A DNA stretch of 38,562 nt from a virus (taxonomy: Duplodnaviria > Caudoviricetes), in IMG/VR virus record IMGVR_UViG_3300016484_000727, positions 1 through 38,562 of that record, one strand, 5' to 3'. Shown in pieces: positions 2,530-36,898 of this stretch. Position numbers and translations under genes: made by a program. Each line of letters begins with the position of its first letter. Within the stretch, counting starts at the first letter, position 1. Below the pieces are notes generated by a model. It had not been told where the DNA came from. It saw only the letters and a program-made list of their open reading frames with translations, and did no database searches.

Positions 2530-2907
2530 ATGAGTTTAAACCGTGACAACATGGCGCGAGTACGAGCTGCGGCTATGCAGGTATTTGAGGACCTGGGTGG
2601 TGTGCAGGGTATGTTGGACTGGGCGCGTGAGAATCAGACGGTATTTTATCAGAAGGTGTTACCTGTTTTGGTGAAGCAGGATGGTTCGGATGTGGACCGT
2701 GTATCTGGAGCTATGGGTGGTTTAAGGATTAATATCAACATGGACGGCCAGAGTCGGCTGGACATGATGTCCGACACCGTGGGTCCGGTGATTGAGGGTG
2801 CTGGGAGTGGTTTGATGGGGCCTGTGTCGCGTCCGAGTGATGAGATGGTTCACGAGGTCCGGTCGTTGGGTGATGTTGTGATTATGGTGGATGAGCCGGG
2901 TGCGTAG
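2530..2907 (+). CDS. terS: putative terminase small subunit
   Basis: Directly upstream of terL; helical motif VFEDLGGVQGMLDWAREN.TVFY; start moved from 2317 to ATG 2530. Confidence 0.6.
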   Translation: MSLNRDNMARVRAAAMQVFEDLGGVQGMLDWARENQTVFYQKVLPVLVKQDGSDVDRVSGAMGGLRININMDGQSRLDMMSDTVGPVIEGAGSGLMGPVSRPSDEMVHEVRSLGDVVIMVDEPGA

Positions 2908-2950
2908 GATGTGGTGTGTTGGTTTCCGTGGTGTGTGCCGCGTCTAAGAA

Positions 2951-5344
2951 GTGGAGTGGGTGGTCGTGGAAATAAACTGGACGCCTCCTGGTCCTGTGGC
3001 GGCTGCGTTTATGCGCAGTGAGGCGTTTGTGCGTGGTTTGATGGGGCCTGTGGGTTGCGTGTCTGGTGACACGTTAGTGGTGACGGAGTATGGTGTTATT
3101 CCCATCTCTGATATAGATCGGCCAATGCGCGTTCTATCGTGGAACGACAAGACAAATCAATTCCAGCTTTCTTGGTGTGGTGGTTCGTTCCCAAAAGGTA
3201 TTGACTATCTGCACCAAATTTCAACGCCGCACGGAGAATTTGCTGCAAGCGGACATCACCAGACTTACGGCGCACAGCGTAGCTATCGACGGGTTGATGG
3301 TCTGGCGTGTGGTGACGTTTTGTTGCGATGCTCAGACGTCCTAGGCGTGACATCCGTTTTGGTTTCCCGGTTATTGTCTGGCGAAGGTGTTCCGCATTCG
3401 ATTCAAAAAGCCGTAAATTATCTGGGTGATTATGCAGCGTTAGCCCGTCAATATGGTCAACGATTTCTGACGGGAGAAGGTAGCGTCCAAGCTTCTGTTC
3501 CATTACGAGGCGGTGTTCGTAAATTAATTTTGTTTGGCGGTTTGTCCTTAGCCGCGCGTATGGGTGATCGTTGGGAGCGGTTACGAGAACGTATCCGTCA
3601 TGGTCTATCCGCCGTCCTGTGGAGAATTGGTGGTTCTTCTCTCCGTTTTGTGCCCCACAATTGGGTCTTGGAAGGTTTTTCTGAAAAATCACCCTTCGGA
3701 TATAGCGTGGGGAAACCGGGACCAAGCGGGCTATCTCGGTTGATGTCCGCACTCCATCTGAGAGCTGAATTATCATCTGGGTGTTTTGGTTCATGTGTTG
3801 GCTCCATATCCGAAGGGGCCATTAAACGTGTGAGGCGTGAAGCTGTCAAGCGTGCATACTGGGACATGCAGGTTCTTGATACGAATAACTATGTTACTGT
3901 TGATGGTACCATCCACCATAACAGTGGCAAGTCGACTGCGTGTGTGTTTGAGATTTTGAAGCGTGCGATGACGATGTCTCCGGGTGTGGATGGCAAGAGG
4001 CGGAGTCGTTGGATTGTGGCGCGTAACACGTATCCGGAATTGAAGACGACGACGATTCCGACGTGGCACCAGTGGGTGCCGAGTACGATGGGTCGGTGGA
4101 TTGGTGAGGGTCCGCCGCGTCACATTATTGAGACGCCGGATCTGGAGATAGAGGTGGTGTTTCTGAGCTTGGACAAGGCGGATGATATTAAGAAGTTGTT
4201 GTCGTTCGAGGTGACTGGGATTTGGCTGAACGAGGCGCGTGAGTTACCGTTTAGTGTGTTGGAGGGCGCGTCTAGCCGGGTTGGTCGTTTCACGAAGGGG
4301 TTAGCGCCGGGTCAGCAGTCGTCATGGGCGGGTGTGATTATGGACACGAACCCACCGGACACGGACCACTGGTGGTATACGTTGGCGGAGCGTGCGACGG
4401 ATACGGATCGTCGCCGTGAGATTGTAAATAGTATTTCTGAGACTGAGGATGGTCTGCGGTCGCTGGGGTTACTGGGGCAGGATCAGCCGTTGTATGAGTT
4501 TTTCCGGCAGCCCGGCGGTTTGAGTGAGGGTGCGGAGAACGAGGAGGGGCTGGCGAAGGTTCCTGGTGGTCGTAAATCGTATTACATGAAGGCGTCGGCG
4601 GGGAAGAGTGATGCCTGGCGTCGGATTTATATTGATGGCGAGTATGGGTATATCCAGGATGGTAAGCCGGTGTACCCTGAGTATAGGGACAGTGAGCACT
4701 GTGGGGAGACGGTGATTGCGCCGAGGGTGCCGGTTCACATCGGGATGGATTTTGGTTTAACCCCAGCGGCTGTGTTTGGTCAGCGGATTCCGAGTGGGCA
4801 GTGGTTGGTACACAGGGAGCTGGTGAACGACCGTGCGTCACTGGCGGAGTTCGCGCGTCAGATCCTGCGGATGTATAACGATGAGTTTAAGGATTGCCCG
4901 ATTGGCTCGATTACGGGTGACCCGAGTGGGCAGGCTGGGCAGGCGGGTGATGAGAGTGCGCGGAATGTGTTTGAGATCCTGAAAGCGTCTGGATTGCGTG
5001 CGAAACCAGCCCCGTCGAATGACCCGACCTTGCGGATTGAATCTGTGGCGCGGGTCCTGAGGGTGCGGGATGGGTTTAAGATGAACCCGAAATGCCGTGT
5101 GTTGCGTAAGGGTTTCATAGGGGCGTATCGATACAGGCGTATGCGCACATCGGGAGATCGGTACGAGGAGAAGCCCGAGAAGAATGATGTGTCTCACGTC
5201 CATGATGCTGGTCAGTATATGTTGTTAGGAGCGGGTGAGGGCCGTGTATTGATGCGGGCGGATACTGGTCTGTACATGCCGGATGGAACGAAGTATATTA
5301 GGCCGACGCGCGTCCGCACAGAGTACGATGAATTTGGGGGGTAG
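2951..5344 (+). CDS. terL: terminase large subunit precursor containing an intein
   Basis: Walker A GPVG|SGKS split by the intein; Walker B IWLNEARE; DTNPP motif; nuclease GMDFG and C-terminal HVHDAGQY. Start may be GTG 2966 (GGAG at 2953-2956). Confidence 0.95.
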   Translation: MEWVVVEINWTPPGPVAAAFMRSEAFVRGLMGPVGCVSGDTLVVTEYGVIPISDIDRPMRVLSWNDKTNQFQLSWCGGSFPKGIDYLHQISTPHGEFAASGHHQTYGAQRSYRRVDGLACGDVLLRCSDVLGVTSVLVSRLLSGEGVPHSIQKAVNYLGDYAALARQYGQRFLTGEGSVQASVPLRGGVRKLILFGGLSLAARMGDRWERLRERIRHGLSAVLWRIGGSSLRFVPHNWVLEGFSEKSPFGYSVGKPGPSGLSRLMSALHLRAELSSGCFGSCVGSISEGAIKRVRREAVKRAYWDMQVLDTNNYVTVDGTIHHNSGKSTACVFEILKRAMTMSPGVDGKRRSRWIVARNTYPELKTTTIPTWHQWVPSTMGRWIGEGPPRHIIETPDLEIEVVFLSLDKADDIKKLLSFEVTGIWLNEARELPFSVLEGASSRVGRFTKGLAPGQQSSWAGVIMDTNPPDTDHWWYTLAERATDTDRRREIVNSISETEDGLRSLGLLGQDQPLYEFFRQPGGLSEGAENEEGLAKVPGGRKSYYMKASAGKSDAWRRIYIDGEYGYIQDGKPVYPEYRDSEHCGETVIAPRVPVHIGMDFGLTPAAVFGQRIPSGQWLVHRELVNDRASLAEFARQILRMYNDEFKDCPIGSITGDPSGQAGQAGDESARNVFEILKASGLRAKPAPSNDPTLRIESVARVLRVRDGFKMNPKCRVLRKGFIGAYRYRRMRTSGDRYEEKPEKNDVSHVHDAGQYMLLGAGEGRVLMRADTGLYMPDGTKYIRPTRVRTEYDEFGG
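3096..3794 (-). CDS. HNH homing endonuclease with N-terminal HTH, encoded antisense inside the intein
   Basis: 232 aa; GYVLV...HPYA...YEHRLVMEQKLGRYL...E.VDHIDG...N...NL..SNAEH is a typical HNH_3-type core; TSTEIARLVPVSPRYIRRV is HTH-like; GGAG 7 nt upstream of the ATG. Confidence 0.92.
   Translation of the reverse strand: MNQNTQMIIQLSDGVRTSTEIARLVPVSPRYIRRVIFQKNLPRPNCGAQNGEKNHQFSTGRRIDHDGYVLVTAPNDHPYARLRTNRQTKLIYEHRLVMEQKLGRYLLPSEIVDHIDGLTLHNHPDNLRLFESNAEHLRQTITGKPKRMSRLGRLSIATKRHHTPDHQPVDSYAVRRKSGDVRLQQILRAALKFGADSQYLLGTNHHTKKAGIDLSCRSTIERALADLYQRWE
3802..3849 (-). promoter_or_regulatory. sigma70 promoter and RBS for the antisense HNH gene
   Basis: TTGACA (3849-3844), exactly 17 nt, TTTAAT (3826-3821); GGAG at 3805-3802. 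Confidence 0.8.
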
Positions 5345-33879: not shown

Positions 33880-36102
33880 ATGGAAAAACAGCGCAACTTT
33901 GAATCACTGGCTACATCGCTACTGTCTGATGCGAAATCCCTTTTGCGCACATGGCTGCCCAATGGACGTCTGGTTGGGAACGAATATACGTCCGGTGATC
34001 TGGGTGGCGCACCAGGCGAATCACTGAAAATAAATATCCAAACGGGGCGGTGGTGTGACTTTGCAACAGGGGATAAGGGCGGCGATCTCATCAGCCTTTA
34101 CGCCTCGATCAGGCGGATCAGCAACCCCGAGGCGTATGATGTCCTGTGTGGTGGATACGATATTTACCCCGCGTCACAGCCTCAGGTGGAGTTAAAGCGG
34201 CTCACACCTCCACCGTCTAACGCTCCAAAGCCGAACTTTCACGACACAGAATGTGGCGATCCCGTCGCGATCTACACGTATAAGACCAAATCGGGCGGGG
34301 TGTATAATTACATATGCAGGCATGAGCTTGATGGTGGTAAGAAATTCACACCCCACACATGGTGCGCTGATGACGCGATGTGGGTTCGTAAACACATGGC
34401 CGCACCGCGTGTGCTGTATAATCTCAACCTCATAACCGACCGCCAGGACTGGCCTATCCTTATTGTTGAAGGTGAGAAGGCGGCAGACGCGGCACACCGT
34501 GTATGTGGTCACAAGTATGTGGTCACGACATGGCCGGGCGGTGCGCAAGCCATAGGGAAGGCCGATCTCACACCACTTCACGGACGAAACGTGGTGCTCT
34601 GGCCTGACGCGGATGACGCTGGCATCCAGGCTATGAATAAACTCGCTGGCCTTCTTATGGGTAAGGGCGGCACGATCAAAATTATCAACCCCGAGGGACT
34701 TGAGGCTAAACACGATGCGGCTGACCTGTTTAATGACCAAGCTATGTCGTACGATCAGTGGTTGGTCTGGGCGCGTCCGCGAACAGCTCCTTATTTTGGG
34801 GCAGAAGTCACCCCCCTTGTACCAATGGCACCCAATCCAGCCCCACCACCCCCGCGTCAGGAGGATATGGACGACAATTCCCCCCAAGTTTTATGGGCAA
34901 AGTATGGTCTCCAGATCGTTAATAACAAACCCGCGCCAAACCTCCTCAACATTCAGCGGATCTTCCTTAACCACACTTCATTCGGCGACCTATGTTATTT
35001 TGACGAATTCTTCAATCAGGCGTTCATTAAGGATGGTGACGTATACCGACCGTTTACGGATAACGACGCAATTTCCATCGCCATAAAGATCCAAGGTCAG
35101 CTTGCAATGCCGACCGTGAGCGACGAACTTGTTTATAAATCAGTGAAGGCATACGCTATGTTCAAAACCGTATCATCTCCAAAGGCTTGGATGGAAACCT
35201 TAAAGTGGGATGGCGTCCAGCGCGTTGGAAAGTGGGCACACACCTACATGGGCGCGAGGGATTCTGAGTATCACGACGCAGTGTCTAAGAACTTCTGGAT
35301 CTCGATGGTCGCGCGGATCTATCAGCCGGGGTGCAAGGCTGACAACATGATTATCCTAGAAGGCAAGCAGGGACTGGGTAAATCTACTGCCCTCTCCATC
35401 ATCGGCGGTGCGTGGTATGGTGAGAGCACAGAGTCGGTGCAGTCTAAGGATTTTTACATCTGTCTCGGCGGCAAGATGCTTGTTGAGATTGGTGAGATGC
35501 ACACGTTCAGTCGTGGGGATGTGTCTCGCGTAAAACAAATTATGTCGGCCACCAAGGACACGTATCGAGAGCCGTATGGACGGACATCATCAGACCATCC
35601 GCGTCGCTGCATCTTTGCCGGCACCACAAACGACGCCCAATACCTGAATGACCCCACTGGCGCACGTCGGTTCTGGCCCATCAAGACCGGGAAAATCGAC
35701 AACACCCTTCTAAAACAGGACAGAGATCAGCTATTTGCTGAGGCAATACACCTGTTCAAATCAGGTGAGCCGTGGTGGTTGGTTCCAGAGCGTGAGGCCG
35801 CAGTTATACAGGAACAAGTTCGTGTGGCCGATACGTGGGAAACCCCTATCTCTGATTACGTGTCCGCCAAGGTTGTAGTTACCCTTAATCAGGTGATCCA
35901 GGAGGGATTAGGTATTCAGTCGCAGGAAAAAGTCACCAAGGCCCTGCAACTCCGTGCCGCCGATTGCCTTCGCGCGATTGGATGGGTTAAACGCGGACAG
36001 AATGGCCGTGGCGGTCCGGTTTACTGGTGTGCACCAGAGAACGCGGATGTCCCACTCAGTACACTTGTGGCTAGCACAGGAGGTGTTTTCGATGGCTTCT
36101 AA
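33880..36102 (+). CDS. primase-helicase (TOPRIM plus VirE/VapE-like P-loop domain)
   Basis: W.DFATGDKGGDLI N-terminus; IVEGEKAADA and WPDAD TOPRIM motifs; EGKQGLGKST, YREPYGR, FAGTTN, DPTG.RRFWP. Confidence 0.92.
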   Translation: MEKQRNFESLATSLLSDAKSLLRTWLPNGRLVGNEYTSGDLGGAPGESLKINIQTGRWCDFATGDKGGDLISLYASIRRISNPEAYDVLCGGYDIYPASQPQVELKRLTPPPSNAPKPNFHDTECGDPVAIYTYKTKSGGVYNYICRHELDGGKKFTPHTWCADDAMWVRKHMAAPRVLYNLNLITDRQDWPILIVEGEKAADAAHRVCGHKYVVTTWPGGAQAIGKADLTPLHGRNVVLWPDADDAGIQAMNKLAGLLMGKGGTIKIINPEGLEAKHDAADLFNDQAMSYDQWLVWARPRTAPYFGAEVTPLVPMAPNPAPPPPRQEDMDDNSPQVLWAKYGLQIVNNKPAPNLLNIQRIFLNHTSFGDLCYFDEFFNQAFIKDGDVYRPFTDNDAISIAIKIQGQLAMPTVSDELVYKSVKAYAMFKTVSSPKAWMETLKWDGVQRVGKWAHTYMGARDSEYHDAVSKNFWISMVARIYQPGCKADNMIILEGKQGLGKSTALSIIGGAWYGESTESVQSKDFYICLGGKMLVEIGEMHTFSRGDVSRVKQIMSATKDTYREPYGRTSSDHPRRCIFAGTTNDAQYLNDPTGARRFWPIKTGKIDNTLLKQDRDQLFAEAIHLFKSGEPWWLVPEREAAVIQEQVRVADTWETPISDYVSAKVVVTLNQVIQEGLGIQSQEKVTKALQLRAADCLRAIGWVKRGQNGRGGPVYWCAPENADVPLSTLVASTGGVFDGF

Positions 36103-36898
36103 TATCAATGCAAAATGGACCGACGAAAAACGAGAGTGGTTCCTGCGTCTGATCGGTGAAGGATATACCACGCCGCAAATCGCTGGAATTATGGAACTCA
36201 GTACATCCAGTATCCGTAAGGCCCGCACGCGGTACGGCGTCCCGACGATTTACGGCCCACCAAAAAAACCGAAACCGCAGAAAACAACAAAGCCTCACGC
36301 CCCATGGCCAGATGAAGTCAATAAGCGCATGGTCGAACTTGCTCACCAAGGCATGACGGCGCAACAAATCGCAGTCACTATCAAAAAACCGAAGCGCACA
36401 ATCGCTAACAAATGCCGGACGCTTGGGATAAAATTAAACCCCGCACCAAAAGGGCGTGTCATATGGACGCCAGAGGAGATTGAGGCTGTCCGCGCGATGG
36501 TAGGTAATAATTATTCATCAGGCCGGATCGCGGGCACCATCGGTAAGACTAGAAACGCAGTGATTTCCTTGTGTCGCCGCAACAAAATAAAGTTTCAACC
36601 TCTACGGAACGTTCCACTAAGCATAGGGCGTAGGAATAAAATCGTTGAGAAACCTGACCTTCCAGATATTTGCATACCGGTTCAAATCTCCACCCCATCA
36701 GTCACCACGCCGTTTTACGCGCTTAAATCCGGGCAGTGTAAGTGGCCATTTGGTCATGCCGCATATGATATGGCCTGCTGTGGTGAACCAGTGTCGTCAC
36801 ACGGAAAACCCTATTGTGAGGCGCACAATCTAGCCGCCTATAATCCGCCACCACCTAAGGCGTTCATTCGTGGCGCTCACAGGGCCGCATATAGATAA
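36092..36898 (+). CDS. gcrA: GcrA-family regulator with three tandem N-terminal domains
   Basis: WT.E...G.S...IA...G.TRNAVI...R N-domain; L....CKWP.G...CG......PYC..H...AY C-domain; start moved to ATG 36092 (GGAGG upstream). Confidence 0.88.
   Translation: MASNINAKWTDEKREWFLRLIGEGYTTPQIAGIMELSTSSIRKARTRYGVPTIYGPPKKPKPQKTTKPHAPWPDEVNKRMVELAHQGMTAQQIAVTIKKPKRTIANKCRTLGIKLNPAPKGRVIWTPEEIEAVRAMVGNNYSSGRIAGTIGKTRNAVISLCRRNKIKFQPLRNVPLSIGRRNKIVEKPDLPDICIPVQISTPSVTTPFYALKSGQCKWPFGHAAYDMACCGEPVSSHGKPYCEAHNLAAYNPPPPKAFIRGAHRAAYR

Follow-up and report, generated by a model that had tools for sequence, protein, structure and literature searches.

A terminase intein with an HNH endonuclease gene on its opposite strand: a probable two-gene selfish element in a phage genome

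The virus record IMGVR_UViG_3300016484_000727, which is 38,562 bases long, rated complete and here called the window, carries a terL gene for the large terminase subunit whose Walker A loop is split by a class-1 intein, and the minus strand of the intein encodes an HNH endonuclease (Table 1). The intein runs from Cys1 to His-His-Asn, is followed by a +1 Ser, and is placed between GPVG and SGKS of TerL. In the model of the minus-strand protein, a helix-turn-helix (HTH) region precedes the nuclease core. Both open reading frames (ORFs) had been proposed in a preliminary description made from the letters of the window, and both are borne out by profile and structure searches, which return a Hint fold for the intein and HNH_3 for the antisense protein.

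Table 1. Features at the terL locus, in window positions (aa, amino acids; nt, nucleotides; pLDDT, predicted local distance difference test; E, expectation value; SD, Shine-Dalgarno).
Feature	Position	Strand	Remarks
Class-1 intein, 289 aa	3056..3922	+	In Walker A, between Gly and Ser
N-terminal splicing (Hint) region, aa 1-92	3056..3331	+	Cys1, block B His68; pLDDT 94-98; 7cfv E 1.6e-5
Sense-frame helical segment, intein aa 95-139	3338..3472	+	Opposite HNH catalytic core; mild constraint
Sense-frame filler, intein aa 142-245	3479..3790	+	Predicted disordered (pLDDT < 50); kept only stop-free
C-terminal splicing region, aa 250-289	3803..3922	+	Block F Asp270, His-His-Asn
Antisense HNH endonuclease gene, 232 aa	3096..3794	-	ATG to TAA; wholly inside intein
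HNH protein aa 1-45, helix-turn-helix	3660..3794	-	Model; Z 5-6 to many HTH proteins
HNH nuclease core, aa 92-136	3387..3521	-	H94, D113-H114, N122, N126, N133, H136
HNH protein aa 171-231, predicted helical C-terminal domain	3102..3284	-	Overprinted on intein N-terminal splicing region
Predicted sigma-70-like promoter	3821..3849	-	-35 TTGACA 3849-3844, 17 nt, -10 TTTAAT 3826-3821; within intein C-terminal codons
SD-like GGAG	3802..3805	-	7 nt before HNH ATG
terL, intein-containing precursor	2951..5344	+	797 aa from GTG 2951; TIGR01547 E 1e-5, phrog_2 E 1.4e-21

The intein resembles canonical class-1 inteins and mini-inteins such as Spl DnaX (7cfv), Ssp/Npu DnaB (1mi8/4o1r) and Mtu RecA (3ifj) in its Hint fold, Cys1, block B His, block F Asp, His-Asn end, +1 nucleophile and insertion in a conserved nucleotide-binding motif. 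Its structure model consists of two Hint halves (aa 1-92 and 250-289) at pLDDT 94-98, two helices at aa 95-139 and a disordered stretch at aa 142-245. A Foldseek search with this model retrieved solved inteins (best E 1.2e-6) and gave 28 PDB matches at E of 0.001 or below, the listed ones being inteins or Hint domains. A profile of 107 family inteins likewise matches solved inteins by sequence (7cfv, E 1.6e-5; 1mi8, E 7e-4), and the window intein alone matches Pfam Intein_splicing below the cut-off. The insertion site is fixed by empty alleles, since the Walker A loop is uninterrupted at this place in all 69 distinct nearest C-extein relatives (80 loci). Cys1, His-His-Asn and a -1 Gly are present in 123 of 123 complete inteins, with Ser (120), Thr (2) or Cys (1) at position +1; C1 and the block B H68 are invariant among the 107 aligned inteins, and the block F D270 is at least 90% conserved among them, with Cys, the class-3 residue, there in 2 of the 123. 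TerL is an essential protein. The window intein therefore combines class-1 sequence features with a predicted Hint fold, and its conserved catalytic residues, its fold and its position in the Walker A loop of an essential gene together indicate that it probably splices.

Unlike canonical bifunctional inteins, the window intein has no endonuclease domain in its own frame: no endonuclease family was matched in the sense frame by Pfam, PHROG and other family scans, and profile comparison found no likeness between the sense-insert and HNH profiles. A canonical bifunctional intein is thus ruled out by the missing in-frame endonuclease match and the predicted disorder of the insert, and a fractured gene with a split intein by the single continuous 797-aa ORF and the absence of stops in 123 inteins. 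The central region had been described as filler, which fits aa 142-245 and the lack of an endonuclease match but not the helical, mildly constrained aa 95-139; similarly, the antisense ORF does lie inside the intein but is not confined to the filler, as its final ~76 codons share DNA with the N-terminal splicing region (intein aa 15-90).

The antisense protein matches Pfam HNH_3 at 30.8 bits (curated cut-off 24.8; E 2.3e-7) and phrog_10730 over residues 7-231 (E 1e-56), and 631 proteins match it. Residues H94, H114, N122, N126, N133 and H136 are invariant in 130 aligned HNH relatives, D113 is at least 90% conserved, and the strict catalytic pattern is kept in 111 of 115 full-length copies. Because only HNH_3 and HNH PHROGs are matched, an antisense LAGLIDADG or antisense VSR subtype is ruled out. 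The model (mean pLDDT 88.5) comprises the HTH (aa 1-45), the core (aa 46-145) and a helical C-terminal domain (aa 171-231). No fold relative of the C-terminal domain was found via the atlas (best 0.75), Foldseek or VIA-align, an uninformative result as the domain was not folded alone. Like the group I intron endonuclease I-HmuI (PDB 1u3e), the protein has an HNH_3-type core, with model aa 46-145 aligning to 1u3e aa 10-105. It differs from I-HmuI in having an extra helical C-terminal domain and in placing the HTH at the N-terminus, where I-HmuI has a catalytic domain followed by a C-terminal DNA-binding domain; the carrier is an intein and not, as for I-HmuI and I-PfoP3I (PMC3428280), a group I intron. 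In three longer inteins (342-361 aa; L238:2645-3727, L244:1764-2846 and L245:2702-3727), the antisense HNH has an extra N-terminal HTH-like repeat and both frames are open.

Both strands of the intein are under selection. By their coordinates, the two frames pair at first positions, and each third position faces the second position of the other, so that neither frame can shadow the other. Substitution classes were compared in 31 disjoint close pairs, and repeating the comparison in 15-codon steps on 40 pairs gave the same picture. Over HNH aa 8-140, HNH-silent changes amount to 0.23-0.36 per site versus 0.024-0.051 for intein-silent changes; in the intein-only stretches, intein-silent changes are at 0.36-0.43 versus 0.03 for HNH-silent ones; and where the HNH tail overlaps the N-terminal splicing region, both classes are low (0.086 and 0.106). 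This pattern shows that the middle of the element is selected through the HNH frame, its ends through the intein frame, and ~76 codons through both. The filler has no sense stop in 112 full-length inteins versus 4.6 per sequence after synonymous recoding of the HNH frame (145 codons), and hence its open frame is not due to chance. Over intein aa 15-90 the antisense frame has one stop in the 112 sequences, versus ~2.0 per sequence expected.

The overlapping HNH tail is a subfamily trait. The core is matched in 148 of the best 150 cluster representatives and the tail in 40, and 29 matches to the HNH protein in GenBank phages outside the family fall only within aa 15-164. In most copies the HNH frame terminates at intein codon 8-14; in distant relatives it does so earlier, mostly near intein aa 50-85 (boundaries were set by pattern, and some are misplaced). 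Hint is the older fold, and the tail would therefore have arisen by read-through and been fixed later. Part of the model's confidence in this tail may stem from conservation that the sense frame imposes, and the tail's function is putative.

The HNH gene likely has its own promoter and ribosome site, both within or next to codons of the C-terminal splicing region. Of 112 inteins, with sites scored out of 12 and synonymous recoding as the null, 92 have their best promoter-like site at a single position with a 17-nt spacer. TTGAC is present in 71 of the 112 versus 17% in the null and TAnnnT in 75 versus 14%, and scores of at least 10 are reached by 41% versus 7% after recoding. The sense codons over the -35 element are nearly fixed (GTC in 74 of 82 Val, AAG in 90 of 93 Lys), and across the promoter and ribosome site intein-silent changes are down to 0.17, versus 0.41-0.55 immediately outside. 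Where a rule found an ATG (90 sequences), an SD-like motif stands before it in 79, versus 7.5% of control windows. A hairpin over the ribosome site is unsupported (z -0.22), and a scan of 2900-4300 returned no terminator beyond the end of the HNH gene. A minus-strand match of a consensus promoter scan at 3930-3903 falls in conserved protein motifs.

The layout is common in phages. From 253 loci, with six loci cut by contig ends left out, at least 123 distinct complete inteins were obtained; all share the layout and the relative frame, have no sense stop and sit at one Walker A position, and they include those of cultured phages. The conservation in homologous inteins that the preliminary description had proposed to check is thus present, with both frames under selection. 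Among 50,697 GenBank phage records, nine carry the family, namely seven Pectobacterium phages, Dickeya phage Setonix and Pseudoalteromonas phage PHS3. Of 31 host C-exteins scanned, 27 match terminase-large-subunit PHROGs, L009 and L039 match second-insert families only, and L253 and L143 have no match. Several terminase ORFs far exceed their relatives in length. In L009, L039 and L080 (C-exteins of 793-798 aa), an apparent second insert follows ~30 aa after the first intein; the others are L014, L020 and L247 (746-778 aa) and L488, which has a weak LAGLIDADG match.

The distribution is patchy. The window TerL belongs to a starred clade of 49 rows, 47 of them empty, and near L025 the element is absent from 60 of 70 distinct alleles (88-100% identity). 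Three pairs carry near-identical inteins in diverged terminases: fourfold-site differences are 3/94 in HNH versus 80/187 in the extein for L029/L031, 1/91 versus 51/142 for L195/L196, and 13/79 versus 78/132 for L065/L066 (p down to 4e-14 among 2968 pairs). Flank differences begin at -4/+3, -18/+18 and -4/+9, respectively, and boundaries only 3-18 nt from the junction point to recent, precise homing. Pairs with the reverse pattern, in which HNH is more diverged than the extein, also exist (best p 1.7e-5 among 2968) and would also be expected where one intein replaces another. A fewest-changes count of 7 on the terminase tree was not used, owing to biased sampling and the lack of a shuffle comparison. 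In public run X4, contigs differ at 2/371, 0/229 and 2/156 sites over the intein (3161-3936) and at 8/180, 8/249 and 27/402 over the extein (4044-5047), a contrast that fits recent transfer, with the pieces unbridged; a contig from run X1 lacks 9 nt at 3488, with both frames preserved.

Eight deletion forms (133-226 aa) have lost the front or all of HNH, and seven of them keep an open antisense remnant; the antisense frame of the 133-aa mini-intein of L163 is full of stops. These forms represent the usual cycle of invasion and decay. In five of them (203-226 aa; L022, L092, L121, L139 and L156), the HNH start and HTH are gone, the core and tail are open, and the breakpoints cluster; the promoter-like site remains in L092, L139 and L156. 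The element is selected on both strands and is very likely still mobile.

Antisense HNH genes in inteins extend beyond the subfamily of the window. A profile of 23 tail-less relatives yielded 80 loci (69 distinct), the best of 551 confirmed; 14 of the 80 carry the tail and belong to the window's subfamily. Among the 69 distinct ones, 67 are antisense ORFs enclosed by an intein-like stretch, with the relative frame unchanged, and the other two are cut by contig ends. All 20 sense segments scanned match Pfam Intein_splicing (9 above the cut-off) and no nuclease family. The 16 hosts scanned comprise five that match terminase families, a strawberry-notch-like helicase (L439), an AAA_24 ATPase (L424) and nine without a match. 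No close free-standing HNH relative was found among the best 80 of the 551, and no in-frame or fused HNH form among 1701 longer candidates, which is weak evidence. Two candidates, L415 (an intein with HNH in frame) and L416 (a mini-intein), were set aside; the intein from L415:2001 onward, with its in-frame HNH domain, is unrelated, and its portal-like host gene was named by eye. In the distant relatives L440, L456, L461, L476 and L493, the insertion lies at least one residue further along the P-loop than in the window, after Gly-Lys and before Thr.

Collectively, we interpret the locus as a two-gene selfish element, with a probability of about 0.82: protein splicing would restore the TerL loop, and a minus-strand HTH-HNH protein, likely expressed from its own promoter, would make a nick or break in intein-free terL, whose repair would copy the element in. 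TerL would be made as a precursor from which the intein splices out, restoring the ATP-binding loop. As no phage RNA polymerase was seen among the 25 window ORFs scanned, the host sigma-70 polymerase would transcribe the minus strand, starting within the C-terminal splicing codons. The resulting HTH-HNH protein would then attack the unoccupied Walker A site in a co-infecting relative by nicking or cutting, with nicking favored over double-strand cutting by the likeness to I-HmuI, and repair would copy the element with very short flanks, perhaps aided by the RecE/RecT-like genes of the phage. Not being released by splicing from a late packaging protein, the nuclease would be available earlier, while co-infecting genomes recombine; we hypothesize that this timing advantage explains the stability of the layout.

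Several points weigh against this interpretation. A Thr typically stands three residues before the block B His, though not universally, and in this family it is mostly replaced by Ala, Ser or Asn, with the His kept. The likeness to I-HmuI is modest, the top Foldseek match having E 0.075 and aa 46-145 superposing on 1u3e at Z 5.1 with a root-mean-square deviation of 4.0 over 85 aligned residues. No ATG was found by the rule in 22 of the 112 sequences, and the consensus promoter scan, whose rule demands A at -10 position 2 where the window has TTTAAT, made no call at the window site and returned two sites versus 1.3 expected. Inteins of the Ymer type and of PHS3 lack the promoter at the fixed place: L002 scores 8 elsewhere, PHS3 (L001) has an 11-of-12 promoter-like site at another offset, and Sabo has no good site. 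Intein and extein identities correlate (Spearman 0.66), so that much of the history is co-descent or transfer within a terminase clade. Approximately unbiased tests do favor the interpretation, rejecting three terminase-sister pairs as clades of the HNH tree (p 2e-10, 5e-5 and 1e-4), but the pairs were chosen after both trees had been seen and cover 22 of 115 rows. The sequences are related, and the counts are not independent events. The support as a whole comes from sequences and models, the four public runs supplying contigs without strand; in RNA run X1, short contig pieces fall on the intein and show neither strand nor transcription.

Among the alternatives, the one that survives best, though unlikely, is that HNH is a competition or marker-exclusion nuclease cutting related phage DNA whether filled or empty, the intein being only a safe landing place that spreads by hitch-hiking. 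The target of the nuclease is indeed not readable from sequence, but transfer boundaries 3-18 nt from the intein ends in three pairs, the single Walker A position of 123 of 123 inteins and the location of 67 of 69 distant relatives inside inteins all weigh against this reading. Much less probable is that the antisense ORF is a passive shadow or dead relic and that the intein is inherited vertically or moved by general recombination. The correlation of intein and extein identities is compatible with it, and the open remnants in seven of eight deletion forms show that an open frame alone is no proof of function; however, the frame offset of third against second positions prevents shadowing, HNH amino-acid changes are suppressed 6- to 15-fold, the strict catalytic pattern is retained in 111 of 115 full-length copies, and the promoter and SD motif are conserved. 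Equally improbable is domestication of HNH by the phage, for example to assist the terminase in cutting DNA or to act as an HTH regulator, with an antisense transcript damping early terL: HNH genes reportedly adjoin terminase genes in some phages (PMC3592412), and RNA unterminated within 2900-4300 could run antisense over the terL start, but most close terminase relatives lack the element, forms deleting the HTH or the whole core sit in intact terL genes, and HNH relatives occur in non-terminase ATPases.

The two-gene interpretation places the window element beside inteins that are already known. The preliminary description knew of no earlier account of the architecture, but antisense LAGLIDADG and VSR-like homing-endonuclease ORFs inside intact inteins, TerL included, have been published, with antisense LAGLIDADG examples in Synechocystis DnaX, a Chloroflexus SpoVR-like protein and actinobacteriophages (bioRxiv 10.1101/2025.01.02.630785). 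The proposal of a composite selfish element is supported by conservation, two-frame selection, patchy distribution, tree discordance and the recent-transfer pairs, but its novelty is not; the window element is the HNH version of a known architecture. The text of the preprint describes inteins that share with the window an intact intein, an open foldless sense filler, an endonuclease ORF on the opposite strand, a TerL host and signs of ongoing spread; it lists HNH only in frame and calls inteins with antisense ORFs rare, and the word "promoter" is absent from its main text. Here, by comparison, the nuclease is HNH, with at least 123 distinct inteins in one subfamily and at least ~50 more distant ones. 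No antisense HNH in an intein, overlap with a splicing domain or promoter was found in full-text searches of a literature set that lacks most subscription papers, although the supplementary tables of the preprint could hold a case, and the available text of the Ymer-genus paper (PMC11445585) mentions neither intein, HNH nor homing. New here are the conserved, predicted antisense sigma-70-like promoter and ribosome site in the intein C-terminal codons, together with the pairs indicative of recent precise homing.

Two further systems are comparable. The ShiLan domain of mycobacteriophage methylases (PMC11855218) is also a hidden HNH ORF in an open host frame with signs of homing, but it lies on the same strand in a shifted frame and has no splicing domain, whereas the HNH gene here is antisense and its host is rescued by an intein; the Hint domain rules out a ShiLan-type insertion. 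In fractured genes with split inteins (Dassa et al. 2009, cited in bioRxiv 10.1101/2025.01.02.630785), the endonuclease is likewise a gene of its own between splicing halves, but the host frame here is continuous in 123 of 123 complete copies.

As to its genomic setting, the window contains genes for portal, capsid, tail-tube and internal virion proteins, RecE/RecT-like proteins, a helicase, a primase and a GcrA-family protein, a content by which the phage is judged to be podovirus-like. The GcrA-family regulator (35954-36898, plus strand), which has several HTH repeats (Pfam E 2.2e-14), suggests an alphaproteobacterial host. The terL start is probably GTG 2966, given a GGAG 9 nt upstream and the N-termini of homologues. 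Directly 5' of terL, the plus-strand ORF at 2530-2907 has no match in Pfam or PHROG and is a putative small terminase by position alone. Further upstream, at 2400-2480, C-rich runs precede the packaging genes and the strong late-gene skew of G over C reverses; a genome end or packaging site could lie there. Across the insert, G+C falls from ~0.56 to 0.50 and the flanking GC skew weakens, as expected for foreign DNA.

Annotation of such loci errs in two ways, dropping HNH or truncating TerL. That pipelines would discard the nested ORF, as had been expected, holds for Sabo and Koroua, where only the sense gene is annotated, as a hypothetical protein, but not for PHS3 (KX912252.1, L001:3041-5019), in which HNH is annotated and the annotated TerL starts inside the C-terminal end of the intein, missing the N-extein and the intein.

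The nearest two papers leave open how hidden endonuclease ORFs of inteins and comparable inserts are expressed, and whether homing continues. The family described here offers a testable answer, a conserved promoter and ribosome site in splicing-domain codons, in the cultured phage PHS3 (Pseudoalteromonas marina). It also supplies a clean natural case in which an enzyme domain is truly dual-coding, and a large, unexploited collection of HNH nucleases directed at Walker A codons. A broader proposal is possible and is put forward tentatively: antisense HNH genes with their own sigma-70 promoter may form a large class of mobile phage inteins that targets the P-loop codons of many ATPases; in the window's subfamily, the nuclease may have gained a new, folded and needed 60-residue domain by overprinting the splicing domain in the least free frame, the promoter may free homing from late terminase timing, and the family may offer a dated, testable instance of a domain born de novo on top of an enzyme. 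The findings suggest that many inteins filed as decayed or as mini-inteins are active.

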